Part shown: in pieces, positions 1,322 through 22,421 of the stretch
How positions within the stretch are numbered: position 1 is the first letter of the stretch
How the letters are laid out: each line of letters begins with the position of its first letter
NCBI GenBank assembly: GCA_963833225.1
Contig: CAWHXD010000007.1
Span: forward strand, 32,001-96,000
DNA: 64,000 nt
DNA from: an uncultured Chloroflexia bacterium
GTDB taxonomy: Bacteria; Chloroflexota; Limnocylindria; Limnocylindrales; CSP1-4
Direction of reading: 5' to 3'
Notes under the pieces: model-generated
Databases searched by the model: none
Told to the model about the DNA's origin: nothing
What the model saw: the letters and a program-made list of their open reading frames with translations, nothing else
Program-made: the position numbers and the translations under genes

Positions 1322-1400
1322 GCCAGCCGCGGAGTCACCCGAGGCGCACCGGCAGCGGCCAAGCGACCGGGACAAAGAGGTCGGTGCCGGTGGTTTGAGA

Positions 1401-1416
1401 CCTCTCGCCCCGACCA
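1401..1416 (+). repeat. att-like core copy (type A arm)
   Basis: Exact CCTCTCGCCCCGACCA followed by GATCGACC, as at 3988 and 14025. Confidence 0.9.
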
Positions 1417-1559
1417 GATCGACCTTCTTCGTGCTCAGAACAGCCCGTCTCGAGGCCCTCGGCCAACGCCCCTGGTCACCCCAATGGTCTGGGCGCGCCG
1501 CCATGGCCAATCCCCCACGATCCATGCCAACCTCGGCCTTGGCTCAGCGGCGCGAATGC

Positions 1560-1880
1560 TCAGTCGGGCCTGACGCTTATCACCACATTGCCCTTCTTAT
1601 GCCCCTTCTCGACGTACTCGTGCGCCTCGCGAACGGCCTCGAGCGGATAGGTCCGATCGACCACCGCCCGAAGCGAGCCCGCCTCGAGCATGTCGCGGAG
1701 GTACCAGAGGTCGGCGAGCTTCTCGGTGGTGCTCGAGCGAACCGACCAGCGTCCGCGGCGACATCGTCACGTGTGTAGTCGATCACTCGCTCCGCGCCCA
1801 ATGACCGCACGAGGTCCAGGTCGGCCGTGCTGGACACCCCGGTGACGCGGGCACCGACAAGCCCCACAACCTCCATTCGA
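1560..1880 (-). pseudogene. NAD(P)-dependent zinc-type alcohol dehydrogenase/quinone oxidoreductase, C-terminal fragment
   Basis: GARVTGVSSTADLDLVRSLGAERVIDYT, then frameshift to AVVDRTYPLEAVREAHEYVEKGHKKGNVVI. Confidence 0.7.
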
Positions 1881-2000
1881 TCGTTGACAATGAAGACATA
1901 GGGGGACACGATCAACCTAAACCTTCAATCTCTTGGGGAGAATGAAGGCCTGCGAGGAGTGATTGCGGGCGGGGACGGCTCGGATCGATGGCCGCCGCCG

Positions 2001-2037
2001 TCGAAATCGTCGTCCTGAGTCGTGTCGCCCTGACAGA
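2001..2037 (+). repeat. Degenerate att copy (type B arm)
   Basis: TCGAAATCGTCGTC-CTGAGT-CGTGTCGCCCTGACAGA resembles the 10504-10541 and 15122-15159 copies. Confidence 0.65.
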
Positions 2038-2067
2038 TTGCGGATCTGAGTATGCGCCGCTGGCTGT

Positions 2068-3610
2068 TCACGGATGGCTCGCCGTGACCTCAAAGAGTTG
2101 CCATTCGCCCGGCACCCCGCGCAGTGCATGTTGTCCCGCGTCCTGCATTGGCACATCGGGAAGTGCGGAGGCCAGGTCTGCGGAGACGAGGATGTCCCCC
2201 GCCCCGGCTGTTCCCATCACCCGCGCGGCCGCGTGGACAGCCAGCCCGCTCACCTGTTCGCCACGCATCTCCACGTCGCCCAGGTGCAGGCCCGTTCGGA
2301 CGCGAAGACCGAGCCTCCCCACGCTTCCACGCATCGCCACCGCGCAGCGGATCGCGTTGCCCGGTCGATCGAAGACGGCGAAGAAGGCGTCGCCGGCCGT
2401 ATTGACCTCGCGGCCACGATACCGCGCCAGCTCCTGGCGCACCGCTGCCCTGTAGGCGTCAAGGACCTCCCGCCAGCGCTCGTCGCCCAGCGTGACGATC
2501 GCCTGGGTGGATTCCACGATGTCGGTGAACAGGAGGGTCAACCGGCTGCGCGCGGGCAGTGCTCGGTCGACGATCGGCCGCAGTCGATGACGCACCGGGG
2601 CGAAGGCGAGCCCGGCGGCCAAGCCCACTGCGGCCGCCATCAGATTGGAGCCCGACCGAACCTTGCCTGCAGTACGTTTTGCGCCACCACGTTTGCCGCG
2701 CCGAACACCACGAGCAGCACCAGGCTGACGGCCCCGTAGAGGGCAGTCCGGTTCAGGAACAGGTCAAGGTCGTAGAGTCGATAGCGAAGCATTGCGACCG
2801 CGAAACCGAGTGGCATGGCGATCCCGAAGCCGGCAACCGTGGTGACCGTCACCAACACGTTGACCTGGTCGAGTGGGACGATCAGCAGCGCGCCGACGTT
2901 GAGGCCAACGTTCAGGAACACCGCGAATGCCGTCGACCATGCGATCCAGCGCAGCTGCAACGCCTCCTCGCCCTGCGACCGCCTCAGCCGGAGCACGATG
3001 GCCACGCCGGCAGCCGCCACGATGCCCAGACCGGCCAGGTACAGGACGATGCCAAGCGGCGAGAGCGCCAGGCCCTCGAGCTCCGGCACGCCGGTCGGGT
3101 TGGGGGCGCCGGGCAGGGTACGGAGCTCGAGCCCGCGCGGGTCCAGCACCGTTGCGATCACCAGGAGCACGGTGACGGCCACCGCCGACCGCGCCACCCA
3201 CCGCCAGCGGCGCGACAGCAGCCGGCCATTCGGAACAAGCAGGAGGACGATCGGCGCCAGCCCAGCGGGGTACACCAGCGTGAGGGCAACGCTGCCGAAC
3301 CACGGGATCCATGACGTGAAGGGTGCCTGCGGGTTGGTATCGAGGGCGTAGCGCGTGAACTGCGTGGCTGCGCCGTTCAAACCCATGACCAGCGCCATCG
3401 CCAGGAAGATCCAGCTGTGGCGTTCCCGGTCTGGCGCGACGCGACCAGGGCGCCGAGGATGCCGAAGCTGACGGGCAGCACGATCTCGGCCGCGCTTGTC
3501 TGATCGAGCGTCTGGATCGACGCGCGATTGACGAACGCGAGCAGGGCGGTGCCGGCCGCGGCCAGCAGCGTAGCGACGCAGATCGACCACGCGAGGAGAC
3601 GGGCGCTCAC
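2068..3610 (-). pseudogene. Multi-TM membrane protein with class III adenylate/guanylate cyclase domain, split by two frameshifts
   Basis: LLFTDIVEST...AGDAFFAVF...RTGLHLGDVE...GLAVHAAARV in 2068-2640; hydrophobic segments in 2640-3420 and 3377-3610. Confidence 0.75.
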
Positions 3611-3830
3611 ACGGGGATGCTAACGGACGCGCTCCGCGCAGAGGAACCCGAAGATGACTGGTTCTGGCTGGTCTTCAGGGCGCCACATTCCGCGAGCATG
3701 TGAGCCGGCACGACGGGTACGAGGCGTCTGGGGCCGCAGCCGGCGTGTGCTAGGCAAACCGCTCGACGCGACCGCCGCCTGAGCCACCGCCCACGATCCT
3801 GATGGTCAGTTGGGAATTGCCGCAATGACT

Positions 3831-3846
3831 CCTCTCGCCCAGACCA
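3831..3846 (+). repeat. att-like core copy (1 mismatch)
   Basis: CCTCTCGCCCAGACCA. Confidence 0.8.
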
Positions 3847-3888
3847 GCTCGCTTCAGCACCGGATTCGTGCGTGGATTCATGCCCAGG

Positions 3889-5290
3889 TCAGGCAGTGGC
3901 GCTGCTGACCCACCGCTCCGTGCCCGTCAGAGCGAGCTCCAGCGGCCATGAGACCGGGACACTAGGGTCGGTACTGGTGGTTTGTCTCCTCTCGCCCCGA
4001 CCAGATCGACCAATCGAGATTGATTGGTCCCCAGCCCCGAAGGCTGCATCCCATCCGTGGGCCTTCGCGCTGGCGGTCAGCGTGAACGAGAAGTCGGTCG
4101 CCCCCAGCACGTCGATCCGCTCGAACACGGCTTCCGCGATCGCGTGCCGCCCGGCATCCGAGGTCTTCGCCCACAGCTCTGGCAGCGACTCCAGGTACTC
4201 CCGCGCCTCGGCGGCGGTCGGGATGCGTGACGGGCGGACCACCGCAGCCTGAGCCTCGGCGTCGAGCCGCGCCATCGTCGCCTCCAGCCGACCGAGGTCG
4301 CGATCCTTCGCGAACCGCAGGGCCGCCTGGTCACGCTCCCTGGTGATGCGGGCCTGGGCCAGGACGTCTCCGTTGTCGGGCTCCGGTCGCCTGGCCAGGG
4401 CGACCGTGCTGGCCTTGAGCGTCGACGAGACGGCCACGTGCTTGAATGCGAGGCCGATCGCGTCCTCGTACACCTCGACCTTGTAGGACTCGCCCTTGAC
4501 GCGGTGGTCGAGGTTCGTCTTCGCATTGCGCCGGTGGCGGCGCGGGGCAGCCGCCCGAAACGCCTCGCAGGCGTCCAGATGGCGGTACCGCCCGACGTGG
4601 CCGGTCAGGCGGCGGCCGCAGGCCGCGCAGGCCAGGAGCCCGGCAAGGCCGTACTGGCGGCGGTTGACCCCGCCGCGGTGCCGGCGGCTGTACCGGGCGC
4701 GCATCGCCTGGACGTGCTCCCAGGTGCCGGCGTCGACGAGCGCGCCCAGGGCTGACGGCTCGCCGGTCCGGAGGCGCCCCACATAGAAGGGGTTGGTCAG
4801 CACCTCCGCGACGTGCGTCGGCGCGAGGCCCGTGGCCTTCCCGACCTCGCGGTCGGTTCGCCCGCCTGCCGCGAGCTCGTAGGCGCGGCGGACGAGGCAA
4901 GCGCTCCTCGTCGACGGTAATCGTCCGGCCATCCCGCACCGTCCCCAACGGCGCCTTGTTGCCGCCCGGGACGCCGAGCCGCCGGCGCTTCGCCGCATAG
5001 CCCTCCCGGATCCGCTTCGCCAGCCGCCGGCTGTACGCCTCGGCCTCGACCGCCTCTCGGGCCCAGCGCTCCCACTCGTCCTCGTCGGTCGAGAGGACCC
5101 GCTCGTCGGCGAACAGGATCACCGCGCCTCGGGCGTGGAGGTCGTGGCGGGCGTTGACCGCGGTCCGCAGGTCCCGGGCGAAGCGGCTGACATAGCCGAC
5201 GACGAGGACCTCCCAGTCCTCGCCCGCGCCGGCGAGCATCTCCGCCCACTGGCCGGTCGCCGCGATCGTCCGCCCCGAGTGGGCAACCTC
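3889..5290 (-). pseudogene. Large serine recombinase (resolvase + recombinase + Zn-ribbon + coiled coil); N-terminus missing, frameshift near 4900
   Basis: HSGRT...VGYVSRFARD (resolvase SR..R motif), EAEAYSRRLAKRIREG, EVLTNPFYVG, LAGLLACAACGRRL; the att core sits inside its last ~40 codons. Confidence 0.85.
3988..4003 (+). repeat. att-like core copy within the LSR 3' end (type A arm)
   Basis: Exact core; the minus strand reads GRSGRGERRQTTSTD across it. Confidence 0.92.
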
Positions 5291-5531: not shown

Positions 5532-6167
5532 ATGGACCTGGGTCGGCCGATCCGAGCCGTCGTTCCGTCGCTCGACGGGCCCGTGCTCGAGGTGCTCGCG
5601 GGCACGTCGCGACCGCTGACCATCTTCGAGGTCCAGCGTCTCGCGGGCGTCGGGAGCCCTTCGGGGATCCGTAAGGTCCTCGAGCGCCTCACGCGCGAGG
5701 GCGTGGTCGAGGTCGACCGTCGCGCCAATGCCGCCTACTACACGGCCAACCGGGAGCACCTTGCGTGGCCCGCGGTCGAGATCCTCGTCGGGCTGCGGAG
5801 CGCGCTGTTCCGGTTGCTGGCGTCAGAGATCCACGCCTTCGCGGTCCCTCCCGTCCATGCCTCGCTCTTCGGCTCCGCCGCTCGGGCCGACGGAGACGCG
5901 GAGAGCGACATCGACGTCCTTCTTGTCAAGCCCACCCTCGATGACGTCGCCGAGGAAGCCTGGGCCTCGCAGCTCGACACGCTCCGTGCGCGCGTCCTCA
6001 CGCGCACCGGCAACCGCTGTCAGGCGTTCGACCTCTCGCTCTCCCGGCTGGCCGAGCACGTCGGCGCCGACGACGCACTCCTCCGGTCCTGGCTTGCCGA
6101 TGGCGTCCTCCTGTTCGGGCAGCCGCTCTCGGACCTCGTCGATCAGGCAAAGGCGGTGGTCGCCTGA
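5532..6167 (+). CDS. HTH + minimal nucleotidyltransferase (MNT-type antitoxin)
   Basis: N-terminal wHTH; SLFGSAARADGDAESDIDVLLV (GS..DxD). Confidence 0.8.
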   Translation: MDLGRPIRAVVPSLDGPVLEVLAGTSRPLTIFEVQRLAGVGSPSGIRKVLERLTREGVVEVDRRANAAYYTANREHLAWPAVEILVGLRSALFRLLASEIHAFAVPPVHASLFGSAARADGDAESDIDVLLVKPTLDDVAEEAWASQLDTLRARVLTRTGNRCQAFDLSLSRLAEHVGADDALLRSWLADGVLLFGQPLSDLVDQAKAVVA

Positions 6168-6586
6168 TGGCGCGGGCGAGCGGACGGACCGCGACGTGCG
6201 GGCGGGCCGAGGCGATCGCGCGCCTGCGCCAGGCGCGCGCATTCGTCGAGGTCGCCGAGCTCTGTCTCGCCGACGTGGACAACCCGGACCTGCCGCTCCG
6301 TGGGGTCGCGGGTGCGCTCGCCGCGCTCGGCGGGATCGCCGCGTCGGACGCCGCATGCTGCGCACGACTCGGGCGACGCTCGAGGGGCCAGGATCACGCC
6401 CAGGCGATCACGCTCGTCGCCACCGTCCGCCCCGATGGCGAGCGGTTGGCGCGTGACCTCGGTCGACTCATCGCGATCAAGGACAACGTCCACTACGACG
6501 CGATCATGATCTCGATGACCGATGCGAAGGCTGCGGTCGCTCAGGCAAAGCGCATGGTCGGGATCGTCGACGAGCTCCTTCGCTGA
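6167..6586 (+). CDS. HEPN-like protein, partner of MNT
   Basis: Helical 139 aa, coupled to MNT; GIAASDAAC and LIAIKDNVHY (K instead of R in the Rx4-6H motif). Confidence 0.65.
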   Translation: MARASGRTATCGRAEAIARLRQARAFVEVAELCLADVDNPDLPLRGVAGALAALGGIAASDAACCARLGRRSRGQDHAQAITLVATVRPDGERLARDLGRLIAIKDNVHYDAIMISMTDAKAAVAQAKRMVGIVDELLR

Positions 6587-6843
6587 CGACCGCGCGAACG
6601 CAGTCAGGCCTGCGGCTGCACCACCACCGGGAGCGCGCGTGTGCGCGCATGGAAGGCTTGGCGATTTCCTGCCGATTCCAACGGGGCCGGGACAGGCTCC
6701 GCGTCGGCACGAAGCTGGATCGATACCACAGCGCCGCGCTCGGCGAGTCACGCCGCGGCGGACGGCAGGGCTTTGGGCCCGCCGACGCGGATCGGCAAAG
6801 GCCACGTGATCGGGACGTCAAGGTCGGTCGTGGAGGTTTGTCT

Positions 6844-6859
6844 CCTCTCGCCCCGACCA
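6844..6859 (+). repeat. att-like core copy (type A arm)
   Basis: Exact core; 6811-6861 is identical over 51 bp to 22269-22319. Confidence 0.95.
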
Positions 6860-7290: not shown

Positions 7291-7494
7291 CACCGTTGAG
7301 GATCAGTACCGCCGGCCGGCGCTGTCGTCGGGCCGGCTCCGGTTCTTCCCCGGCCGGGCGACGCCGAAGCCGTGTCGGTTGCCATCTGTTGTGCGACCAA
7401 CCGCCCGCGACGGGGGATCGACCGGCACTTGATCGCTCGGCGCCATTGTTCATAATTTGGATGTACAACATGAGATTAGTTCCGAGGCAACCCG

Positions 7495-8058
7495 GTGACA
7501 ACGGCTCAGCAGCATCCAATCCACAGGTCCGACGCCGTGCGGCGCCCGCCGCCGGATCGCTGGCGACGGCTGAGCATCGTCGTGGCCGGCATCGCACTGG
7601 TCGTGTTCGGTGCGGCCTGGATGCACGTCGGGGCAGGGGCGGGCACCGGGATCATCGCGGCCGCGAACGGTGGCATCGATCCGCTTTCGTACCTTGACTG
7701 CAAGTTCGACGAGACCGGGTGTGTCCGGACGCCGCTCGCGGTCGGGGACGGCTTCCTCGTCATCTGCGAGAACTTCACCGCGAACACGTCCCCGGGGGGC
7801 ATTGCGCGCGTCGTCTCCGTGTACGGGCCTGGTAACCCGGTCCTGGAGGAGTACACGGGCGCCCTGCCCATGGCCCTCAAGTGGGGCGACAAGCTCGAGG
7901 CCGTGATCAAGGCGATGGGTCGGCCGAGCCGGATCTCCGACCTGTACGGCCCTCCGACGTTCGTCTACACGTTCACCGGCGAACGATATGGATCGCTCGA
8001 GCTCCAGTTCGACGCCGAGGACCATCTCGTCCGGATCAACGCGGGCCTGACCCGCTGA
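7495..8058 (+). CDS. Hypothetical membrane-anchored/exported protein
   Basis: Single N-terminal TM, 187 aa, protein-like composition. Confidence 0.65.
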   Translation: MTTAQQHPIHRSDAVRRPPPDRWRRLSIVVAGIALVVFGAAWMHVGAGAGTGIIAAANGGIDPLSYLDCKFDETGCVRTPLAVGDGFLVICENFTANTSPGGIARVVSVYGPGNPVLEEYTGALPMALKWGDKLEAVIKAMGRPSRISDLYGPPTFVYTFTGERYGSLELQFDAEDHLVRINAGLTR

Positions 8059-8179
8059 CCAGCTGGGGTTCCCACGGGCCCCGGCGCGTCTTCTCTCGTG
8101 TGCCGGCCAGCGGTTGAACGGTCAGGTGTGACTCTGTCTGCGCCGCCTGGCGGCACGTCTGTCGGGTGGCGAGCGGCGC

Positions 8180-8736
8180 CCGCGGTTGTAGTGCTCAGCG
8201 TAGATGCGGAGCGTGCCGTCGAGGTGCCGCCGACCGAGGATGAGGGTCCAGTCGAGGCACTCGGTTCGCATCGTCTCGATGACCCGTTCCGCGTAGGCGT
8301 TCGCGTTCGGAGCCCGGACCGGGGTGCGGATGACCCGGATCCTCTCCGAGCGCAGCACCGCGTCGAACGGGCCGCTGAACTTCGCGTCCCGGTCCCGGAT
8401 GAGAAACTGGAAAGCCGGTGACCGACCGTCGAGCCCGAGCGCGAGGTTGCGGGCCTGCTGGGTGACCCACGCCGCGTCGGGGTGCGCCGTCGCGGGGCTG
8501 AGGTGGATCCTCCGGCTGCCGAGCTCGATGAACACGAGGACGTAGAGGGTCCGGAGCCAGGCCGTCTCGACGGTGAAGAAGTCGCACGCGATGATGCCCT
8601 CCGCCTCTGCCCGCAGGAACTCGGTCCACGTCGGGCCTCTGCGCCGGCGGGCAGTACCCAGTCGCGCCGACCGGAGCAGGGTGCGGATCGTCGTCGCACC
8701 CACTCTGAAGCCGAGTTTGCGGAGCTCGCCCCCGAT
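8180..8736 (-). pseudogene. rve integrase-core (IS3/IS481-like) transposase fragment
   Basis: IIACDFFTVET...LIRDRDAKF...PNANAYAERVIETMRTECLD...HYN. Confidence 0.85.
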
Positions 8737-8857
8737 CCGTGCAGATCTGGCTCCGGTGATCGGTGCCGTGGTGGACGACCTGCGCGAGTCGGAAGCCAAG
8801 CGGCGAGTGGAAGTCCCAGCCGTCGCCGTGCTCGACGATGTCGGCATCGCCGTCGGG
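8737..8857 (-). pseudogene. DinB-family fragment, near-copy of 37675-37795
   Basis: DIVEHGDGWDFHSPLGFRLAQVVHHGTDHRSQICT. Confidence 0.75.
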
Positions 8858-8970
8858 TCTCGCCGCGAGCAGGCCTCGGCAAGCACGTGGCACAGCTTCT
8901 CGTAGAGGATAACGGCTTGGGGAAACGCTTCGAGCCCGTCCCCGAGAGGGCGAGATCAGTCTCCATTGTG

Positions 8971-10488: not shown

Positions 10489-10523
10489 GGCCGCCAGCAC
10501 GTATCGAAATCGTCGTCGCCAAT

Positions 10524-10539
10524 CCTCTCGCCCCGACCA
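10524..10539 (+). repeat. att-like core copy (type B arms)
   Basis: ATCGAAATCGTCGTCGCCAAT-core-GATCTCATGACATGTCGAAGCCG. Confidence 0.93.
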
Positions 10540-10804: not shown

Positions 10805-12115
10805 ATGCCACGGTACGTCGAGCGGACTTGGGCGGGCGACCCGGGCGCGATGGGGGGACGCCGGGCACGAACGTCGTTCCGCTTCCGAGCATTCGTGCCG
10901 GACGACATCGCCGGACTGGCGCCCGTCGTCCCCTTCGAGGTGGCCGGCCTGGCGGCGGATGCTGAGGCCACGATCCGGGCCCTCAACGAGCGTGCCTCGG
11001 TCGGCGGCCTTGAGGCGATCGGCCCGTTGCTCCTCCGGGCGGAGGCGGTCGCCTCGTCGCGCATCGAGGGCTACGAAGTCTCGTCGCTCAACCTCGCCCG
11101 GGCGCTCGTGGATCCCCGAGCCGCGCGCGGGAGCGCCCGAACGGTGGCCGCCAACGTGTCGGCGATGGAGGAGGCGATCGCCATCGCTGACGGCGACCGG
11201 CCGATCGCGATCGACGACCTGCTAGCGATCCACGCGATCCTGATGTCCGGCGACGAGCGGGCACGGCCCGGTAACCTCCGCGACGAGCAGAACTGGATCG
11301 GCGGCCGGCTGGACAGCCCGCGCGACGCCGCATTCGTGCCCCCGCCGGAAGACCTGGTGCCCGCGTTGCTCGAGGACCTCGTCGCCTTCATCGCGCGGGA
11401 CGAGCTGCCCGCCGTCGCCCAAGCCGCGATCGTCCACGCGCAGTTCGAGACGATCCACCCGTTCATCGACGGCAACGGGCGCGTCGGCCGCGCGCTGGTC
11501 CACGTGGTCCTGCGCCGGCGGGGGGTTGCCAGTCGGTTCGTGCCCCCGGTCTCCATCGTGCTCGCGGCTCGTCCGGCGTCGTACATCGATGGGCTCACCG
11601 CCTTCCGCGAGGGACGGCTCTCCGACTGGATCGCCTCGTTCTCCGGGGCGGCGGCCATGGCTGCCACGGTCTCGATCGACCTCGCCGACCAGGTGGCCGG
11701 GCTGCAGGCGGCGTGGCGCGAACGGGCCGGCCGACCGAGGGCCGGTTCGGCGGCGGCGAAGCTCATCACCCTGCTGCCGGCACTCCCCGTCCTCTCGGCG
11801 CCGACGGCCCGCGTTGCCATCGGTGTGAGCCAGCAACAGACGCTCGCTGCGCTCAAGGCGCTTGCGGACGCAGCTGTGGTGCACCAGATCAGCGGCGGCT
11901 CGTACGACCGGCAGTACGCGGCATCCGAGCTGTTTGACCTGCTCACGGCATACGAGGCCCGGGTCGTCAGCAGGATCGGCCAACGGGGATGGGGTAAGGA
12001 CGGGGCGACAGACGGGGCGACAGGTCAGATGACACCGCAGCCGCCAGCGAGCCGGGATATTGAGGTCGATCGTGGAGGTTTGTCTCCTCTCGCCCCGACC
12101 AGATACGCCAGTTGA
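10805..12115 (+). CDS. Fic family protein (ORF extends through the att arm)
   Basis: HPFIDGNGRVGR Fic motif; N-terminal EAVASSRIEG. Confidence 0.9.
   Translation: MPRYVERTWAGDPGAMGGRRARTSFRFRAFVPDDIAGLAPVVPFEVAGLAADAEATIRALNERASVGGLEAIGPLLLRAEAVASSRIEGYEVSSLNLARALVDPRAARGSARTVAANVSAMEEAIAIADGDRPIAIDDLLAIHAILMSGDERARPGNLRDEQNWIGGRLDSPRDAAFVPPPEDLVPALLEDLVAFIARDELPAVAQAAIVHAQFETIHPFIDGNGRVGRALVHVVLRRRGVASRFVPPVSIVLAARPASYIDGLTAFREGRLSDWIASFSGAAAMAATVSIDLADQVAGLQAAWRERAGRPRAGSAAAKLITLLPALPVLSAPTARVAIGVSQQQTLAALKALADAAVVHQISGGSYDRQYAASELFDLLTAYEARVVSRIGQRGWGKDGATDGATGQMTPQPPASRDIEVDRGGLSPLAPTRYAS
12086..12101 (+). repeat. att-like core copy (type A arm)
   Basis: GAGGTCGATCGTGGAGGTTTGTCT plus exact core. 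Confidence 0.93.
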
Positions 12116-12266: not shown

Positions 12267-13667
12267 ATGTTGACGCGCGACCAGGTCAATGCGCTGAACC
12301 CCTGGTGGAGTGATGCGGGCTGGCGTCCGGCGGACGACCTGCACCTCGCCGCCGCTGACGAGGCCCCGTTCCGCTGGGATCCGCGCCCGTTCGATCCAGA
12401 CGACCTTGCCTCAGGCGCCGTGTTCACCCTGCGCGGCCTCCGCCAGAGCGGCAAGACGACGCTCGCCAAGCGTCTCATCGCCGATCGCGTCGCCGCGGGC
12501 CACGGCCGCCGCACCTGCTTCCTCACACTCCAGACCGTCACCACCGCCGACGAGCTGCGCGAGGCCATTGAGCTCGTCCTGCGCCTCTGGCCGGACGCTC
12601 CCGGCGAGTGGCTGTTCGTCCTCGACGAGCTGACGTTCGTCCCGGACTGGGCGCGCCCGATCGTCTACCTGCGCGAGCACGACCGCGCGTTCCGCGCCGC
12701 GACCGTGCTCCTCATGGGATCGTCCGCGTATGATCTCGCGTCGTCGGCCGACCTCCTCCACGGCCGGCGCGGACGCTGGCACCGCCCGCTCGACCGGCTG
12801 CACATGCCGATGAGCTTCCGCGACTACACGGCCGCCCGGAGCCTGGCCGCGGTGCCGGAGGCGAGCATCGGTCTGGCGGACCTGCTCACCCCCGACGGAC
12901 GCGCTGCGGTCGATGTCGCGAGCTTGCGCACGGCCGAGCTCGACCAGTACCTGGGCGAGTACGTCCGCTGCGGCGGCCTCCCGGCCCCGGTCACCGACAT
13001 GCTCCTCGACGGGCGCGTCGCCGATGCCACGGTGACCGAGCTCTGGAGGGGGATCTCCGCCGACGCGCGGCGCCTGTCGCGCAGCGACCTCGTGCTGCGC
13101 AAGCTCCTCGCCCGGGCGGTGGTCGCGCTCGCCTCGATGACCGACACCGGGACCCTCGCCCACGAGCTCGATGTCAGCCGCCCCACCGCGGGCGCCTATG
13201 TGGACGTCCTCGCCGCGTCGTTTGCCCTGATCGCCCTCTACCAGCGCGACGCCAAGCGCCAGGACGGGCCAGCCCTGCGCCGGCCGCGCAAGCTCTACCT
13301 CGGTGACACGGCCCTGACGGCGATCCCGGGTGTGCTCGGCGGTCCGGCTCCGGTCGAGGGCGCCCTCGTCGAGAACGCCATCGCGATCGCGCTCCTACGG
13401 GCGGACCGGGCAGCGCTCGAGGGCTTCGCGCACCCCGATCACCTGTACTACTGGCGCAGCGCCGATGGCCGGGAGGTCGACTTCCTGGTCACGGATCCCG
13501 CACTCGTCGCGGTCGAGTCCAAGTACGCGACGCACCGCACCGGCAAGGACTACGAGAGCATGACCAAAGCGTTCGGGCGGGGGATCATGGTCAGCCGACG
13601 GGACATCGAGCTGGACCGGGAGGTCGTGACCGTGCCGGCGGGCGTGCTTCTGGCTCTGCTGGGATGA
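12267..13667 (+). CDS. AAA_14 ATPase with DUF4143 / PD-(D/E)xK-like C-terminus
   Basis: NPWW; GLRQSGKTT (Walker A); FVLDE; GGLP; RKLYLGD; YYWRSADGREVDF...VESK. Confidence 0.88.
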   Translation: MLTRDQVNALNPWWSDAGWRPADDLHLAAADEAPFRWDPRPFDPDDLASGAVFTLRGLRQSGKTTLAKRLIADRVAAGHGRRTCFLTLQTVTTADELREAIELVLRLWPDAPGEWLFVLDELTFVPDWARPIVYLREHDRAFRAATVLLMGSSAYDLASSADLLHGRRGRWHRPLDRLHMPMSFRDYTAARSLAAVPEASIGLADLLTPDGRAAVDVASLRTAELDQYLGEYVRCGGLPAPVTDMLLDGRVADATVTELWRGISADARRLSRSDLVLRKLLARAVVALASMTDTGTLAHELDVSRPTAGAYVDVLAASFALIALYQRDAKRQDGPALRRPRKLYLGDTALTAIPGVLGGPAPVEGALVENAIAIALLRADRAALEGFAHPDHLYYWRSADGREVDFLVTDPALVAVESKYATHRTGKDYESMTKAFGRGIMVSRRDIELDREVVTVPAGVLLALLG

Positions 13668-13680
13668 GGAAGGCTTGGCG

Positions 13681-13800
13681 ATGACCGGCACCTGGCTGTC
13701 GATCCGCGTCGACCTCGTCGAGGGTCGCGGGGAGCGCCTATGGCCGCGACCCGGACGGATCTTCGCGGCGGCCCGGAGCCACACGTTCGCCACCCTCCGA
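13681..13800 (+). pseudogene. N-terminal fragment of a conserved hypothetical (pRiA4b ORF3-like) protein
   Basis: MTGTWLSIRVDLVEGRGERLWPRPGRIFAAARSHTF, then similarity is lost. Confidence 0.5.
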
Positions 13801-13922
13801 TCGCACGGCGCACGGACGGAAGCGCAACTTCACGAAGCTGCTGGACAACGCACGATGGTGACGGCTCCGGCATAGATCGTGCCCGGCGAGGTCGCCAGGT
13901 GGGAGGCGTGCACGAGATCCGG

Positions 13923-14349
13923 TCAGGCGATGGAGCGGTCGCGTAGCCACCGTGCCGAACCAGTCAGAGCGATGCTCAACGGCAAGGAGACCGGGACATT
14001 AAGGTCGGTCGTGGAGGCCTGTCTCCTCTCGCCCCGACCAGATCGACCTTCCTTCACGCGGACGACGCCGGCCCCGAAGGCCGCGTCCCATCCCCGGGCT
14101 TTCGGTTGGGCGGTCAGCGTGAATGTGTAGTCGGTCACTCCCGGGACGTCGATCCGCTCGAACGCGGCCTCGGCGATCGCGTGGCGGCCGGCGTCCGAGG
14201 TCTTCGCCAACAGCGCCGGCAGCGACTCCAGGTAGGCGCGTACCTCGGCGGCCGTTGGGATGCGTGACGGTCGGACCACCGCCGCTGCGGCCTCGGCGTC
14301 GAGCCGCACCATCGTCGCCTCGAACCGACCCAGGTCGCGATCCTTCGCG
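13923..14349 (-). pseudogene. Second LSR C-terminal fragment
   Basis: RLDAEAAAAVVRPSRIPTAAEVRAYLESLP...GWDAAFGAG...GRSGRGERRQ, close paralogue of 3889-4320. Confidence 0.9.
14025..14040 (+). repeat. att-like core copy within the second LSR fragment (type A)
   Basis: Exact core. Confidence 0.93.
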
Positions 14350-14450
14350 TGTGCGTGGTCACGCCGGCCACGTGCACGCGCCGCGAGTTCGACGAAGATC
14401 AGGATATCGGGCGTGGTGTTAGACTAGTCGCAGACCAGATGGAGAGGCGA

Positions 14451-14690
14451 ATGCGACGGATCGGTGCGTATGAGGCGAAGACCCACCTTCCCCGGCTGCT
14501 GGACGAGGTAGCCGGCGGGCAGGCGATCACGATCACGAAGCACGGTGTCGCGGTCGCGGTGCTGGGACCTGTGTCGGCGTCCCCGACCCGGACGCCGCAC
14601 GAGGCGATCGCGGGCCTGCGGGCCTTCCGCGCCGCCCACCCCCTCGGCGGGCTGTCGATTCGGGAGCTCATCGATGAGGGCCGGCGTTGA
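14451..14690 (+). CDS. Phd/YefM-family antitoxin
   Basis: MRRIGAYEAKTHLPRLLDEV..G..ITITKHG. Confidence 0.9.
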   Translation: MRRIGAYEAKTHLPRLLDEVAGGQAITITKHGVAVAVLGPVSASPTRTPHEAIAGLRAFRAAHPLGGLSIRELIDEGRR

Positions 14691-15097
14691 TGTTCGTCGT
14701 GGACGCCTCCGTTGCGCTCGCCTGGTGCCTGGCCGACGAGTCATCCGAGCTCGCTGGGCGGGCCCTTGATCGGCTTGAACAGGACGAGGCGCTGGCCCCG
14801 GCGATCTGGCCGCTCGAGGTCGCGAACGGGCTGCGCACCGCGGAGCGGCGTGGACGGCTCGATCTCGCCGACATGGCGCACGTCCGCGAGTTGCTGGTGT
14901 CGCTTCCCATCGAGGTCGAGAGCGTCCCGCTGGACGTGGCGCTGGGCGAGGTGACCGAGCTCGCCCGCCAGCTCGATCTGACCGCCTACGACGCGGCCTA
15001 TCTCGCACTGGCGGCGCGACATGGGGTTGCCCTGGCCACGGTCGATGCGCGGCTCAGGCGCGCCTGCGAACGAGCCGGCGTCGAACTCGTAGGCTGA
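14687..15097 (+). CDS. vapC: VapC PIN toxin
   Basis: FVVDASVALAW...WPLEVAN...LTAYDAAYLALA...TVD. Confidence 0.9.
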   Translation: MMFVVDASVALAWCLADESSELAGRALDRLEQDEALAPAIWPLEVANGLRTAERRGRLDLADMAHVRELLVSLPIEVESVPLDVALGEVTELARQLDLTAYDAAYLALAARHGVALATVDARLRRACERAGVELVG

Positions 15098-15141
15098 GCG
15101 GGTCGGCCGTTCGCTGAGTCATCGAAATCGTCGTCGCGATT

Positions 15142-15157
15142 CCTCTCGCCCCGACCA
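15142..15157 (+). repeat. att-like core copy (type B arms)
   Basis: ATCGAAATCGTCGTCGCGATT-core-GATCTCATGGCACATCGAAGCCG. Confidence 0.93.
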
Positions 15158-15312
15158 GATCTCATGGCACATCGAAGCCGAACCAGGCACACCGACGTTC
15201 CTGTTCCTCGGTTGTGGCACTCGACCCGGACACAGGAGCGAAAGCCCCGGGCGTGCGGCACGGGCGCTTGTGTGCGACACGCGCCTGTCAGTTTGCAAGC
15301 CCGAGCCGGGGC

Positions 15313-15705
15313 CTAGGGTCGAACCTCGACGAAGCCCGCCGCACTGAAGTCGCCGTCGAAGGCCAGTGCCTCCCCGAGGCGCTCCCGGCGCATGACGACG
15401 AAGCTCGCGGCATCGACGAACGAGTAGACCCGCTCGTCGTGGCGCCGGAGCCAGGCCCTTGCCTCGCGCTCGATCCCCTCGTCCACATGCACGACGGTGA
15501 GCCAATCTGCGGACTCAACCGCGTCGAGGAACGCGACGGCCCCTGGGTGCCCGTCGCGCCGGCGCAGGAACGTCCAGGTCTCGCCGACGACGTGGTTGGT
15601 CGTCAGGAGCGCCTGACCGGGCGCCCAGAGGCGGACTGCGTCCGGGTGATTGGCATCACGCCGGAGCCGGAGCGCCACCCAGTAGGAGGTGTCGACGAAC
15701 CTCAC
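15313..15705 (-). CDS. vapC: VapC PIN toxin
   Basis: FVDTSYW...VVGETWT...SFVDAASF...FDGDFSAAGF. Confidence 0.9.
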   Translation of the reverse strand: MRFVDTSYWVALRLRRDANHPDAVRLWAPGQALLTTNHVVGETWTFLRRRDGHPGAVAFLDAVESADWLTVVHVDEGIEREARAWLRRHDERVYSFVDAASFVVMRRERLGEALAFDGDFSAAGFVEVRP

Positions 15706-16848: not shown

Positions 16849-17345
16849 GTCAGGTGCCGGTGGTCAGTCTCCGGGTTCATCAATGCGCCCTTTCTGAGGC
16901 TCCTGACACCGTGTCGACGATCCGGGACTTGGCTCACCCTACCCAGTATCACCATGAGCCGATAGTGGGTTCTGCGGCCGCGTCTGCGAGGCACGGCGCG
17001 GTGTTCGCGAGCGCTCGCGTCGATCCCCCCGTCCGGCTATGTCACGCCGGCTCGCCCACCGAATCGCTTGCCAGTTGCGCCGCCGTCAGTTGAACGATGA
17101 GGCGGTCGCGGCGATCCATCACCTCCGATACAAGGCCGCGAAGATCTCTTGTTGGCTCGAGGTCTCGGCTGGATGGGCGCATACGATCCGGCGGTAGGCG
17201 GCCGTCGGGCTGCGGCGCGTCCGGACGGCGGCTGAGCCGGCCCGACGTGAGCGCCGGTGCCCGGTCCGCGTCGAACGGCGCGCCGCCAGCGGCGAGCGGC
17301 ATCACGTGGTCGAGTGACAGCGGTTCCGCCCATCATACTCAGCCG

Positions 17346-17879
17346 ATGCCGCCGCCTCGCCCATCGCTCGCCGCACAGTTCGCCGCCTTCCTGCGCTTGG
17401 GAGCATTCGCCTTCGGTGGCCTCGGGGCTGCGCTCGGACTGATCGATCGCGATCTGGTCGAACGCCGCGGCTGGGTGGCTGCCGAGGACCTGCGGGCCGC
17501 CCTCGCATTCACCAAACCGCTGCCCGGCTCAACGGTCGTGCAGGTCGTCGCCTTCCTTGGGTGGCGACTCGGTCGCTGGCCTGGGGCCCTCATCGCGTCG
17601 GTCGCGTTCGTCCTCCCGTCGGCTGCGCTGATGATCGGCGCGGCGGTTCTGTTGACAGCTGCGCCCGGCGGGCGCGTGCTCGAAGGAGCGCTTCTCGGCG
17701 TCCAGATCGCAGTCGTCGGCCTGCTCGCCTCGGCCCTCGCCCGGCTCTCGGGCGATCTCCCCACTGCCCGGCTGCAAGGACTTGCCCTGCTGGCCATGGT
17801 CGCCGGTCTGTTCTCGATCAACGCAGCCGTGATCGTCGTCATCGCCGGCCTCGTGTGGATGGTCGTCCATGCTCCTTGA
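17346..17879 (+). CDS. chrA: Short-chain chromate transporter, subunit 1
   Basis: FLRLGAFAFGG...LPGS...GALIASVAFVLPS. Confidence 0.85.
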   Translation: MPPPRPSLAAQFAAFLRLGAFAFGGLGAALGLIDRDLVERRGWVAAEDLRAALAFTKPLPGSTVVQVVAFLGWRLGRWPGALIASVAFVLPSAALMIGAAVLLTAAPGGRVLEGALLGVQIAVVGLLASALARLSGDLPTARLQGLALLAMVAGLFSINAAVIVVIAGLVWMVVHAP

Positions 17880-18396
17880 ACTGGTGCTCCGGTTCCTGGT
17901 CATCGGCGCCGTCGCCTTCGGAGGTGGCCAGGCGGCGCTGCCCCTGGTGGAGCGGCTGGCTGTTGGCGAGATGGGCTGGCTCAGCCCGTCTCGCTTCGCG
18001 GTCGGTGTCGGGCTCGCCTATGCGACCCCGGGACCGGTGCTCATCCTCGCCGCGTACGTCGGCTATGCCGTTGCGGGGATCGCCGGAGCGCTGGCGGCCA
18101 CCGTCGCGGTCTTCGCCGTCCCGGTGGCGCTGGCAGCGAGCGCCGCGGCAGTCGTCACGCGGCTCGAAGCATCGCCACGCTTCCGTCGGTTCGCGGCGGG
18201 CGCATCGGCCGGGGCTGTCGGGCTTCTCGGGGTCACCCTCCTGGCGTTGGCCCGACCCGTCGGCGTCGTCTCCCCGGTCCTACTGCTGATCTCAGCGATC
18301 GTCTTCCTCGCGGCCCGACGAGTCTCGCCCGTCGCACTGCTGGCCGTGGCCGTCGTGGCCGGCGGCCTCATTGGAGCCGCCACGGGAACGCCTTGA
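17869..18396 (+). CDS. chrA: Short-chain chromate transporter, subunit 2
   Basis: IGAVAFGGG...ATPGP...YVGY. Confidence 0.85.
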   Translation: MLLELVLRFLVIGAVAFGGGQAALPLVERLAVGEMGWLSPSRFAVGVGLAYATPGPVLILAAYVGYAVAGIAGALAATVAVFAVPVALAASAAAVVTRLEASPRFRRFAAGASAGAVGLLGVTLLALARPVGVVSPVLLLISAIVFLAARRVSPVALLAVAVVAGGLIGAATGTP

Positions 18397-18627: not shown

Positions 18628-19062
18628 TCAGTGCTCGGCGGGTGCGGGCGTCAGCAAGACGAGGGCGATCGGTCGCGCGGTGAGCTTCTGGTAGCCGTCG
18701 TATCGCCCGTGGTTGACCTCATTGACGAGGCGCCAGAGTCGCGGATAGTCGACGTCGCCAGACTCGACGATCCGGGCCCCGGCCGCGGCTCGCCGCCGGC
18801 CGACCTGGATAGTGACCTCGGAATTGGCGCTCACGTTGTGGAGCCATGCTGGAGGCCGGTCCTGCCCGCCGTTCGAGGCGACAACGACGTACCGGCCCTC
18901 ATCGATCCCGTACACGAGCACAGCCACCCGCGTCTTGCCCGTGCGGCGTCCGGTCGTGCGGAGGATGAGCGATGGCACGCCGATCATCCGGTGCCCCAGC
19001 CTCCCGTCGCTGCGCACGTAGACGGCCTGGTGGAGTCGGAGGAAGGGGTCGGAGATGGACAT
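18628..19062 (-). CDS. Deazaflavin (F420)-dependent nitroreductase family
   Basis: LRTTGRRTGK...VVASNGG...PAWLHN...YQKLTARPI. Confidence 0.85.
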   Translation of the reverse strand: MSISDPFLRLHQAVYVRSDGRLGHRMIGVPSLILRTTGRRTGKTRVAVLVYGIDEGRYVVVASNGGQDRPPAWLHNVSANSEVTIQVGRRRAAAGARIVESGDVDYPRLWRLVNEVNHGRYDGYQKLTARPIALVLLTPAPAEH

Positions 19063-19132
19063 GGCCGACAGGGTACGCTCGGATCCCGTAGGCACGTTGA
19101 CGACGGCGGTACCCGGCTCGGGCAGCGCGATC

Positions 19133-19161
19133 TTGACAGGAGAGCCCGAGAGGGTTATATA
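19133..19161 (+). promoter_or_regulatory. sigma70-like promoter for the PadR operon
   Basis: TTGACA-17 bp-TATATA, followed by ATATATCG repeats. Confidence 0.6.
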
Positions 19162-19235
19162 TCGCTCCACGATATATCGCCTGTCGCTATTGCTCGCCGG
19201 CGGACGCGCTGGCAGGCATGCCACTGGAGGACACC

Positions 19236-19574
19236 GTGACGTCCGGCCTACTCGACCTCGGCCGCTTCGCAGAGCCGTCCATCGCCATCCTCATCTCGCT
19301 GAGCGAAGGCCCCAAGCACGGCTACGCGATCATGGCCGATGCCGAGGCGACAACCGGCCAACCCCTGGGCCCGGGCACCCTGTACGCGGCGCTCGGGCGG
19401 CTCGAGCGGCGGGGGCTGATCGAGGCGCTCCCGCCCGAGGACCGGCGGAGGCCGTATCGCCTGACAGGGCTCGGCGCCGCGACCCTCCGCGCCCATCTCG
19501 CCCAGCTGGAGCGACTTGTTCAGACGGGCTTCGTCCGCCTGAACGGGTTGGCCGGCGCTGCAGACGGGTCCTGA
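19236..19574 (+). CDS. PadR family regulator
   Basis: GPKHGYAI...GPGTLYAALGRLERRGLI...RRPYRLT. Confidence 0.9.
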   Translation: MTSGLLDLGRFAEPSIAILISLSEGPKHGYAIMADAEATTGQPLGPGTLYAALGRLERRGLIEALPPEDRRRPYRLTGLGAATLRAHLAQLERLVQTGFVRLNGLAGAADGS

Positions 19575-20406: not shown

Positions 20407-20484
20407 CGCGAACCAGCCGGGCCGGCGACCAGACGTCGCGGACCCTGTGCGATCCGGGCGGCGGGTGATGGAGACGGGAGGGCT

Positions 20485-20925
20485 GTGATGTTCCGCGTGA
20501 GCGAGACGGTATCGGTCAGCAGGTCGCCCTCCGACGTGTTCCAGTTCGTCGCGGACCTGCGCAACTTCCCGGAGTGGCGGGCGAACCTCGCGTCCTCAGC
20601 GGTCGTGTCCGAGATCTTCACGGACGTCGGGGCCCGGTGCGACGAGCAGATCCAGATGGGCCCGCTAACCATCCCGGCCTCGTGCGAGATCACCGCCTTC
20701 TCGGCAGGGCGGAGTCTCTCGTTTCGGGCGCTGTCCTCCGGGCTCGTGTACGACGGGAACGTGGTCGTCGAGCCGGAACCCGGCGGGAGCACCTTCACCC
20801 TGTCGGGGGAGGTCCGCCTCAGTGGGCCCCTGCGACTGCTGCAGCCCGTCATCAGGGCACGCATGCAGGACGGCGTGCGCCGGGAGGCAGCCGCAGTCAA
20901 GGCCCGGTTTGAGGCGCTCGCCTGA
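20485..20925 (+). CDS. SRPBCC family protein
   Basis: VSRSPSDVFQFVADLRNFPEW. Confidence 0.8.
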   Translation: MMFRVSETVSVSRSPSDVFQFVADLRNFPEWRANLASSAVVSEIFTDVGARCDEQIQMGPLTIPASCEITAFSAGRSLSFRALSSGLVYDGNVVVEPEPGGSTFTLSGEVRLSGPLRLLQPVIRARMQDGVRREAAAVKARFEALA

Positions 20926-20930
20926 ACGCG

Positions 20931-21176
20931 TCAATCGTCCGAGTACTCCCCGCGCTCGGGCTCGGGCAGCCGCGGCGCGAGAATCCACACCTGCTGCGCC
21001 GTCGTCGTCACCCCCACCTTGGACCGGGCGTTCGCCAGGTGGTGCTTGACGGTCGAGTGCGAGATGCCGAGCCGGGCGGCGGCCGCCTTCTCGGATCCGG
21101 CAACGAGGACCGCGGCGACCACGACGACCTCGCGGTCCGTGGCGCGCTCGGCGGGGCGGGACGGCCGTCTGGTCAT
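20931..21176 (-). CDS. Small LuxR-type HTH protein
   Basis: TDREVVVV...KAAAARLGISHSTVKHHLANARSKVG; start overlaps the stop of an att-arm tail. Confidence 0.75.
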   Translation of the reverse strand: MTRRPSRPAERATDREVVVVAAVLVAGSEKAAAARLGISHSTVKHHLANARSKVGVTTTAQQVWILAPRLPEPERGEYSDD

Positions 21177-21256
21177 GCGCTCTGGAGCCATTCGGAATGC
21201 TCAGGAGGCTCGGCGAGACGCATGGTGATCGGAAGGTCGTTGGCGGCGGGCCTATG

Positions 21257-21272
21257 CCTCTCGCCCTGACCA
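21257..21272 (+). repeat. att-like core copy (1 mismatch)
   Basis: CCTCTCGCCCTGACCA. Confidence 0.8.
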
Positions 21273-21518
21273 GTCCCTTGGTCGCAGACACGCGTTCAGC
21301 CGACTCGGGCCAGCGCCGGCAGGTGATCGCGATCTCTGCCACTGGCTCTAACCTTCCGACCGCTGGACACTCCCGCGCGCGAACGATGCGTTCCATGCGT
21401 GGGAGGTGCCGGGAAATGCAGGACCCCGATCCGCTATGGAGCTGGCCGGCATCGCCGGCGCGTTCGTGGGCTTCGGGGCGCTCATCGCCGTGCGGGGTGG
21501 TGTGGTCGCCTGGCTATG

Positions 21519-21534
21519 CCCCTCGCCCCGACGT
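21519..21534 (+). repeat. Possible degenerate att core
   Basis: CTATGCCCCTCGCCCCGAC, sharing the CTATG context of the 21257 copy. Confidence 0.4.
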
Positions 21535-22301
21535 CGACGGCAGGGGTTGCCAGGCCGACGGAGGCAGTCCGTGACCAGTGCCTCTGGCGGGGGTGGTATA
21601 ACGCAACGAGACTCCGCACCCCACGGGAGGCTCTGGCGCGGCTCGAACCCTGGCCGCCGGAGCCGCGCCGAACCACTGGGAGGGACCAAGTGACGGGCTC
21701 CATGTCATCCGGGTCAGTCCAGGTCCAGTCATGACGGCAGGCACGCCAGACGCGTCGCGGGGCGAGGCGTTAGCCAGTAAGGGGCGGTCGATCTGCCAGC
21801 GCGCCTTGGCCGCGGCGTTGCGCGTCCTCTGCGATGGCACGGGCGGCATCGACGACACCAAGCTTCCCTCGGGTTACGCCGCGCCGTATCAGCGGGGTAG
21901 TCGCATGGTTCGCAACCTCTGGCACCTGCCTTTCTGACCCCAGCGGAGCGCTGCCGAGGCGGGTTGTACGTAGGCTCGAGTCTGGCAGTCAGATCGTCGA
22001 GTCCCTCCGCGCCGCCCGTGAGCCGCGTGTGATCGGCCCGTCCTACCAGGCGCAGCGCGCCGGCCGCGAGGCGCCCGATGGCTGACGCCCGAGGCGCTGG
22101 GCCGCCTTCGCCGATGCCGCGCCGGAGCTTGCTGCCCTCGAGCGCGAGGGCTTTGGCGAGCAGAACCTGACGGTGGGGAGTTGAGACCCATGGAGACTGC
22201 GCGATGCAAGTTGCGGTATGGCACGTTGGGGATCACGCGGCGAGGCGGATCGGGAGCGACCACATCGCCGGGACGTCAAGGTCGGTCGTGGAGGTTTGTC
22301 T

Positions 22302-22317
22302 CCTCTCGCCCCGACCA
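22302..22317 (+). repeat. att-like core copy (type A arm)
   Basis: 51-bp identity with 6811-6861. Confidence 0.95.
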
Positions 22318-22421
22318 GACTGACCCCCACCACCGTGGGTCCGAGTCGCCGATCCCAGCGCAGCCATTGGTGTCGAGTCGCGCCCGTTGCCATGCCCGGT
22401 CGGCTGCTCTATGCTTGACTC

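Follow-up and report, generated by a model that had tools for sequence, protein, structure and literature searches.

A decayed att array at a tRNA-Pro gene and evidence for recombination-dependent C-termini in tRNA-targeting serine recombinases

The window analysed here is a 64,000-nucleotide stretch (G+C ~70%) from an uncultured Chloroflexia bacterium, positions 32001-96000 of contig C7 in an assembly of 3.89 Mb and 20 contigs (C1 onwards). It holds part of a decayed tandem array of small elements that large serine recombinases (LSRs) inserted at one tRNA gene, with at least 16 attachment (att) sites over 53 kb. The original prediction, made from the window alone, had proposed that the left arms of these sites encode interchangeable, often Ala-terminated C-terminal tails for the recombinase, so that recombination would swap the end of the enzyme, possibly a degron. 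Our overall reading, to which we give a probability of about 0.62, is that of a decayed tandem array of elements inserted by tRNA-targeting LSRs, the C-terminus of which is rewritten by att recombination.

A scan for the 18-mer core motif TGGTCGGGGCGAGAGGAG that tolerated 3 mismatches found 12 window copies, every one on the minus strand, between 1399 and 29964. Across the whole assembly, a 17-mer version gave 16 reverse-strand matches, 0 forward-strand matches and 0 matches for a reversed control pattern, which is far above chance; a looser scan placed 16 copies on C7 between 9017 and 61964, all in one orientation, and one more on contig C6. ARAGORN called no tRNA within the window, and a whole-genome scan found tRNA-Pro(CGG) as a complete gene 4.5 kb from the end of C6 (370221-370297); the 3′ end of this gene is the C6 core copy. 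The core is the antisense T-stem 3′ half, acceptor strand, discriminator base and CCA of tRNA-Pro(CGG), and G-R-G-E-R, the peptide read through it, is therefore simply the translation of an antisense tRNA end in one frame. The block common to cores and tRNA can be defined as the 16 bp CCTCTCGCCCCGACCA. The 3.4 kb of C6 that lie 3′ of the tRNA are 93% identical to C7:9017-12427, so that C6 and C7 are probably neighbouring contigs, or else carry paralogous elements; with the intact tRNA on C6 and 16 fragments on C7, we infer that the two contigs are adjacent.

A protein search with the in-frame part of the recombinase gene in the window returned 260 relatives, and the counts below refer to the 120 that were listed. 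Many of these measure 493-554 aa and have a Resolvase domain, and the RWIREST motif varies hardly at all among them. In the homologue P0004, Pfam PF00239 (Resolvase) scored 43.4 bits over model positions 4-142, and the Pfam Recombinase model scored 18.9, below its cut-off of 21.1. Searching solved structures by sequence gave weak matches to the catalytic domain only (E ~1e-3). By Foldseek, the AlphaFold model of P0004 matched the full-length serine integrases 9dxh (E 1.9e-13), Bxb1 (9iu2, 8.7e-13) and PhiC31 (9tep, 1.4e-11), in alignments that span the whole model (~550 columns). On its catalytic domain and overall fold, the enzyme is a large serine recombinase, or serine integrase.

The exchange of its C-terminus is well supported, because the crossover core lies within the reading frame and the end of the protein is thereby written by the DNA beyond the core. 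A GRGER-type motif stands near the end of 98 listed proteins, the other 22 being fragments or frame-shifted. In 35 of the 98 the protein stops at once (31 GRGERI, 2 GRGERT, 1 GRGERV and 1 GRGERN), whereas 63 continue for at least 15 residues counted from the first G. Scanning a genome collection yielded 80 loci, nearly all from metagenome-assembled genomes (MAGs) labelled Chloroflexota, Limnocylindria or Limnocylindrales. Every frame-0 recombinase whose core lies on an ARAGORN-called tRNA-Pro(CGG) ends in GRGERI (19/19), because the antisense T-loop (ATT TGA) supplies the stop, and about 25 homologues without a tRNA carry long tails (26-38 aa) of the same families as the window arms. Comparing tRNA-adjacent C-termini with those in other contexts thus gives two discrete classes tied to context, as expected if recombination exchanges the end of the enzyme. 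Three loci without a called tRNA (L028, L050 and L059) nevertheless end in GRGERI; the L028 contig ends 31 nt 3′ of the core, and the arm of L050 still has a T arm like that of a tRNA.

Other LSR subfamilies cross the same core in other frames. One does so in the +1 frame (VGARG...), reads FEPPTSSSRTMRATKLRHAPTE at the tRNA and has tails of its own, for example VGARGVATTISM...RSA; another uses the +2 frame (SGREDLNLRP...). More distant relatives, 39-43% identical (L073, L074, L078, L079 and L091), overlap tRNA-Arg(TCG), tRNA-Arg(CCG) and tRNA-Lys(CTT). The stop falls inside the antisense tRNA in 5/5 of the distant relatives examined, and tRNA 3′ ends therefore seem to be the target of the clade as a whole. 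That three subfamilies cross one core in all three frames speaks for a rival explanation, in which the tails are by-products: the arms would be conserved as DNA (an LSR half-site, a tRNA relic or the start region of the next gene) and the peptide would be functionless. The 31 GRGERI forms point the same way, being frequent and full-length except for the tail. We consider this explanation unlikely, for reasons that come with the codon analysis below.

The arms beside the 12 window cores, all on the minus strand, fall into three types. Type A arms (core ends 1416, 4003, 6859, 12101, 14040 and 22317) resemble the tRNA from the anticodon loop to its 3′ end. Where the antisense tRNA reads GRGERI, stop, TSDLIVP, they read GRGERRQTSTTDLDVP, so that TSDLIVP corresponds to TSTTDLDVP; the T-loop is altered and lacks the TGA, and six bases are inserted in frame. 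Type B arms (core ends 10539, 15157 and 28236, with variants at 3846 and 29964) lie 3′ of toxin-antitoxin cassettes and read DDDFD followed by unconserved sequence. The single type C arm of the window (core end 21272) reads NDLPITMRLAEPPE...SA.

Two type A1 arms are crossed by recombinase sequence: the core at 3986-4003 by the last 37 LSR codons (3889-4002), which end ...SSATA, and the core at 14023-14040 by the LSR remnant 13923-14423, which ends ...RSIA. The type A2 arms stand apart from any recombinase frame. At 1335..1415, next to a core with 2 mismatches (1399..1416; motif scan and tRNA alignment), 20 open codons upstream lead into GRGERSQTTGTDLFVPVAWPLPVRLG, a tail of the same family as that of homologue P0001. 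At 6748..6858, beside an exact core found in the motif scan (6842..6859), the arm reads GRGERRQTSTTDLDVPITWPLPIRVGGPKALPSAAA, and its stop overlaps a GTG (GTGA) in frame with the open reading frame (ORF) 6143-6805. The arm at 22233..22316, likewise beside an exact core from the motif scan (22300..22317), reads GRGERRQTSTTDLDVPAMWSLPIRLAA and has a GTGA overlap with ORF 21889-22263. Pfam gave no match in the ORFs 3′ of these last two arms (6146-6751 and 21892-22263), so that a coupled gene there is at most putative. A degraded type A arm at the core 12084..12101 lets the LSR-frame reading run on for 292 codons. The type C arm (21173..21271, GQGERHRPAANDLPITMRLAEPPEHSEWLQSA) belongs to the family that has a clear coding signal in other loci; its core, from the motif scan, has 3 mismatches (21255..21272).

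Among type B sites, the core at 10522..10539 with its arm ATCGAAATCGTCGTCGCCA lies 3′ of a PIN toxin gene (10081-10488, +), its DDDFD... reading not being conserved, and that at 15140..15157 lies 3′ of a Phd/PIN toxin-antitoxin pair (14349-15097, +). The core at 28219..28236 (1 mismatch) has the tail GRGERSRDDDIDWSGFRL. Of the two variants, the degenerate core 3829..3846 (1 mismatch) is 157 nt from the next core, and its arm (3750..3845, GLGERSHCGNSQLTIRIV...ERFA) is not joined to a recombinase; the last core of the array, 29947..29964, gives ...AAAFKR. A 64-nt repeat that contains a hairpin (10503-10566 and 15121-15184, 91% identical) closes the type B cassettes.

Reading the minus strand from the core in the G-R-G-E-R frame reproduced exactly the seven tails of the original prediction, six of which end in Ala. 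The description of the arms as often Ala-terminated holds less well for the whole set, since 6 of the 12 cores give an Ala ending and the five core ends that had been omitted (10539, 12101, 15157, 28236 and 29964) give R, R, R, L and R. Short random frames in the genome end in Ala in 11.6% of cases (P = 0.0012 for 6/12), a P value for arms that are not independent because they are partly homologous. As tails of a window recombinase, the arms fit at two cores only: an in-frame recombinase frame precedes core ends 4003 (372 open codons) and 14040 (128 open codons), whereas the other 10 cores have 7-154 open codons upstream without recombinase similarity.

Both LSR copies are defective. The copy at 3889..5239 (-) has a frameshift near 4900 and stops upstream. 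Its first ~60 residues, among them the catalytic Ser, are missing, and Pfam Resolvase matches it only over model positions 64-142. At 13923..14423 (-) lies a C-terminal remnant of a second copy, 76% identical to the first over 135 aa. No other stretches in the window are recombinase-like, which leaves it with only the decayed remains of a recombinase/att system, and because both copies are pseudogenes nothing in it is swapped today. Further recombinase fragments lie 5′ of the window (C7:25331-26314 and C7:22696-22842), together with a second recombinase type at C7:9049-10440 that is 39-42% identical and seems intact (547 open codons, RWIREST motif). This enzyme crosses the same core in the +1 frame (MVGARG...) and reads a type C arm as IAPPPTTFRS, a mismatched tail. 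A copy of the second type at C6:370393-371500, beside the true tRNA, has a frame change near ...TLFERI.

A codon signal was sought in type C arms gathered blind to their tail, from metagenome contigs, as a core followed by 190-218 free bases and a degenerate HSTVKHH motif of the downstream gene. In the window this gene is a GerE/LuxR-type helix-turn-helix (HTH) gene (20931..21176, -; GerE 28.4 bits, cut-off 23.5), the ATG of which overlaps the TGA of the tail (GCATGA). The scan returned at least 81 arms in 80 loci; 72 of the 81 are open for exactly 32 codons that end SA, and a recombinase lies directly 5′ of the core in only ~16 of the 81 listed arms, by a by-eye reading of the upstream peptide. 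The 9 arms without the 32-codon frame were dropped, and 66 unique sequences were analysed. Over codons 6-32, summed diversity was 4.06, 3.51 and 6.87 at codon positions 1, 2 and 3; Arg18, for example, is written CGC (32), CGG (27) or CGT (7), and Pro23 CCG (26), CCA (21) or CCC (19). Over codons 8-23, the pooled Nei-Gojobori ratio of nonsynonymous to synonymous differences per site (pN/pS) was 0.17 in the LSR frame (pS 0.30), compared with 0.47-3.18 in the other five frames, and third positions held 70% of the diversity (column permutation p = 4e-5). Over codons 24-31, pN/pS in the LSR frame was 0.68.

The conservation of the type C family is thus not conservation without a codon signal, and comparison of the sequences shows this tail to be selected as a peptide; for the type A arms that dominate the window the same is only suggested. 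If the tails were by-products, a pN/pS of 0.17 would not be expected to fall below that of the bona fide neighbouring HTH gene (0.30, pS 0.42), nor would 72 of 81 arms be expected to keep exactly 32 open codons with an LSR upstream of so few. Length differences among tail families, moreover, preserve the frame and the ...SA end. In favour of the by-product explanation, pS over codons 8-16 (0.195) is less than half of that over codons 17-23 (0.443), as expected for DNA-level constraint near the core, and type C codons 31-32 lack synonymous change.

The AlphaFold model of P0004, which has a type C tail (mean predicted local distance difference test score (pLDDT) 76.9, predicted template modelling score (pTM) 0.38), places a strand on LSITMRL (residues 500-506, block pLDDT ~77) after the three strands of a small C-terminal sheet (447-453, 457-462 and 479-484), and the last ten residues are predicted to be disordered (pLDDT ~40, range 35-40). 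From the strand order, the tail strand may dock on the C-terminal sheet of the LSR. For another tail family, unrelated to the first (P0186), a hairpin (497-503 and 506-512, pLDDT 63-82) and a disordered end are predicted, and an alternating hydrophobic pattern is common to many tail families (ITMRL, VTIRV, VIVRV, LILRL and TISM).

Several observations weigh against a reading in which the tail is a selected part of the enzyme. All pN/pS values given here were pooled over pairs without a tree, so that relatives are counted repeatedly, and they are descriptive, not formal tests. The 32- and 37-codon sets were picked by length, leaving out 9/81 and 3/15 arms. Codon 31 of the type C arms is AGC in 64/66, with almost no synonymous change, which points to a constraint at the DNA level. 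The tails read from type B arms are not conserved, none of the retrieved loci had the terminal overlaps of a circular contig, and the pTM of the AlphaFold models is low (0.38 and 0.40). Among sequencing runs, the best contained a share of 0.16 of the words sampled, and all consisted of assembled contigs.

The type A arms add to these points. In ten of them, pN/pS was 0.82 in the recombinase frame, compared with 0.74-1.31 in the other frames. The start of the type A arm is present in 12 of 401 genomes of the same class, this genome included; the other 11 genomes hold 15 arms, 12 of them with a 37-codon tail that ends in Ala. Fifteen 37-codon A1 tails gave a pN/pS of 0.73 overall, 0.66 over codons 17-36 and 1.20 over the tRNA-like codons 6-16, with a third-position share of 0.37 (p = 0.20); throughout the type A arms, the tRNA-like codons 6-16 carry no codon signal (1.0-1.2). 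The codon-level comparison that the original prediction called for is therefore clear in type C arms and weak and non-significant in type A arms (0.73-0.82, hardly lower than in the other frames), and this lack of a convincing signal again favours the by-product explanation. The A1 recombinase frame is nevertheless free of stops in 15/15 tails, whereas the other frames carry stops in 3-13 of 15, and the tail length is constant.

Also counting against the reading, the strongest type C signal (codons 17-23, pN/pS 0.07) starts at an in-frame ATG at codon 17 that is invariant in 66/66 unique arms, and a short leader peptide could explain part of it. In its full form, this alternative would make the selected frame a 16-codon leader (MRLAEPPEP..RSA) that starts at this ATG and is translationally coupled to the HTH gene even when the element is integrated. 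It would account for the higher pN/pS upstream of the ATG (0.34), for the ATGA overlap with the HTH gene and for the ~65 of 81 listed arms that are intact without an LSR upstream. It does not account for codons 8-16, where pN/pS is still the lowest of the six frames in the LSR frame and third positions hold a share of 0.54 of the diversity (p = 0.03), nor for a frame that is open from the core onward. In many other families the tail contains no Met, and by strand order AlphaFold would pair the LSITMRL strand, which spans the ATG, with the LSR body. A by-eye look at the type C arm for a promoter or Shine-Dalgarno sequence found nothing convincing. We regard the leader peptide as very improbable.

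The terminal Ala extends beyond the window, as 52 of the 63 long tails among the listed homologues end in Ala, compared with 18.5% of 2108 likely genes in the genome. When the 114 long tails from both protein searches were clustered at 50% identity, 29 of 54 clusters were mainly Ala-ended, including 10/10 multi-member clusters; most non-Ala tails are singletons that resemble mismatched arms. Two things underlie the Ala: the overlap of stop and start and, in A1 arms, a feature at the level of the protein. Type C arms end in the codons AGC GCA TGA, with GCA as the last sense codon in 60 of the 66 unique arms, GCG in 5 and GCC in 1, and the ATG or GTG that shares bases with the stop is the start of a conserved 80-105 aa ORF, which encodes the GerE/LuxR-type HTH protein; further tail families ending in RSA show this overlap as well. 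In the 12 A1 arms, by contrast, no start codon overlaps, and the final Ala is written GCC (6), GCG (3) or GCA (3). These three synonymous codons, together with the Ala ending of every multi-member cluster, argue against tails that are mere by-products.

The same features bear on a further explanation, that the Ala-ended tail is a C-terminal degradation tag. By analogy with the repressor of mycobacteriophage BPs, the long LSR encoded by the circle would be short-lived and the short integrated form stable. The excess of Ala endings and the synonymous variation of the A1 Ala codon would fit, as would the predicted disorder of the last ~10 residues. Two window tails (22233, ..RLAA; 6748, ..SAAA) look ssrA-like, and the transfer-messenger RNA (tmRNA) tag of this genome ends ALAA. 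A passage of PMC4557955 describes how BPs integration removes 33 C-terminal residues with an ssrA-like tag from the repressor and so changes its stability. Only those two window tails look ssrA-like, however: the usual long-tail endings are RSA, TA and IA, not LAA-like, and conservation falls on the predicted structured strand of the tail rather than on its terminus. The GCA that closes type C arms is bound to the ATGA overlap, so that the Ala there is no clean evidence of a degron. The degron is thus a doubtful explanation.

We propose the following mechanism for the reading we prefer, that of a C-terminus rewritten by att recombination. Elements would have inserted successively at tRNA-Pro(CGG) through tRNA-targeting LSRs, with the LSR gene at the element edge and its last codons running across the crossover core. 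Beyond a real tRNA, the antisense T-loop ATT TGA would end the protein at GRGERI; in the excised circle, or beside a tandem neighbour, the other arm of the element would give a tail of 26-38 aa. The arm itself would be a sequence like the tRNA 3′ half from which the T-loop stop has been mutated away, and in the commonest arm family (type C) the tail would be kept by selection on its amino acids and add the predicted beta-strand. A later insertion next door would give the resident recombinase the arm of the newcomer. Arms donated by neighbours would make tails interchangeable and explain mismatched tails such as that of C7:9049.

In the circle, the recombinase frame would be joined to the arm with the HTH gene directly after it, and the stop/start overlap would make LSR and HTH one translationally coupled unit; integration at a naive tRNA would part the LSR from the HTH gene and break that unit. 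One locus, L017, illustrates the arrangement. Its tRNA-Pro occupies 7461-7537, a second core stands at 3628, at a distance of 3.8 kb, and the LSR is found in between; the 3.8-kb element is bounded by the core with a type C arm and by the tRNA. All its genes are codirectional, in the order arm, GerE gene, RibD_C-like cargo, ORF of unknown type, recombinase and core, and the stop of the ORF of unknown type overlaps the recombinase start.

From this arrangement, the long form would be made in circles, and the tail may alter the folding, activity, direction or half-life of the enzyme. A bolder version, to which we attach a small chance, makes the arm tail a sensor of integration state. The long isoform, present only in circles and at tandem junctions, would be integration-competent and/or short-lived, the tRNA-truncated isoform would differ in stability or direction, and the junction would toggle the co-translated HTH regulator. 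Directionality would then be partly written into att DNA rather than left to a separate directionality factor. Serine integrases are prized for genome engineering because their direction is set by simple means, and their natural control is still being worked out; a tail with an effect on folding, half-life or direction would amount to a small switch complete in itself. For annotation, the exchange explains the discrete length classes of these recombinases and the antisense-tRNA peptides at their ends.

The exchange is a variation on known switches in which attP, the attachment site of the element, lies inside a gene (IntP of myxophage Mx8 and the BPs repressor). The target of Mx8 IntP/IntX is tRNA-Asp. 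As in Mx8, attP lies inside the element's own integrase gene, the recombinant gene acquires a different 3′ end and insertion is into a tRNA gene. Mx8, however, uses a tyrosine recombinase, whereas here the enzyme is an LSR, the integrated form is truncated by the antisense T-loop stop and tandem neighbours donate tails. In Mx8, according to a passage of PMC6070905, attP lies within int and integration makes a new 3′ end that modifies the enzyme rather than inactivating it, and part of PMC4383910 describes both Mx8 and SSV integrases as extending across attP. With BPs the system shares an attP core inside a reading frame and the removal of C-terminal residues on integration. BPs alters its repressor and uses a tyrosine integrase, whereas here the recombinase itself changes, its endings are mostly RSA, TA or IA, and a degron is putative; PMC4557955 adds that the BPs integrase also carries a proteolysis signal. 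In the 'suicidal' archaeal integrases of SSV type, as outlined in a section of PMC7253208, the recombination site lies within the integrase ORF and integration alters the gene. There the gene is split in two halves, whereas here the last ~30 codons are exchanged in an enzyme of another family.

SCC-like (staphylococcal cassette chromosome-like) composite islands show comparable tandem accretion. The window likewise holds an element array with direct repeats in which many elements lack an integrase, and it differs from accretion islands in lying at a tRNA gene and in its serine recombinases. Successive insertions at one att site are described in part of PMC5704250 as building arrays bounded by direct repeats, with many elements (cis-mobilizable elements, CIMEs) lacking an integrase. 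According to PMC4383910 (2015), no targeting of tRNA genes is known for integrases of the serine family. In the open-access literature searched, we found no serine integrase described as having a gene that runs across attP or as using tRNA genes for targets; supplementary tables of large recombinase surveys may list some. New here, as judged from sequence, is a putative clade of tRNA-targeting serine integrases with a recombination-dependent C-terminus, found mainly in MAGs of Limnocylindria-type Chloroflexota.

Scanning 37 window ORFs against Pfam showed what cargo lies between the cores. Toxin-antitoxin and related genes are dense there (10081-15705 and 22422-22670). Besides the PIN gene already mentioned (PIN_3) and the Phd + PIN pair, they comprise a Fic gene (10805-12115), an AAA/DUF4143 ATPase gene (12267-13667), a further PIN gene (15313-15705) and MazE (22422-22670). 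Other matches were a glyoxalase/pterin dehydratase, an alpha/beta hydrolase, a split chromate transporter, an F420H2 quinone reductase, PadR and a polyketide-cyclase-like protein. Two adjacent chromate-transporter half-genes (17097-18396) are followed by the F420H2-dependent quinone reductase gene (18631-19224, -) and the PadR regulator gene (19218-19571). An integron-like cassette array was considered and rejected, as no tyrosine recombinase was found among the 37 ORFs scanned and the repeats are tRNA 3′ ends, not attC.

The scan also revealed two insertion sequences in the window. One, at 24919-26749, has perfect 43-bp terminal inverted repeats flanking a DDE transposase gene (24959-26593), and an IS110-family transposase gene (23393-24583) lies just before it. 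An ORF at 1-741 (-), which runs off the window edge, has a weak UPF0236 (transposase-like) match. A 136-nt direct repeat occurs at 8737-8872 and 37675-37810, 29 kb apart and 93% identical; its first copy lies inside an ORF (8125-8886, -) with an rve_3 integrase-core match. Last, 18-nt tandem repeats of three to four copies each are found at 42298-42369 and 49361-49432.

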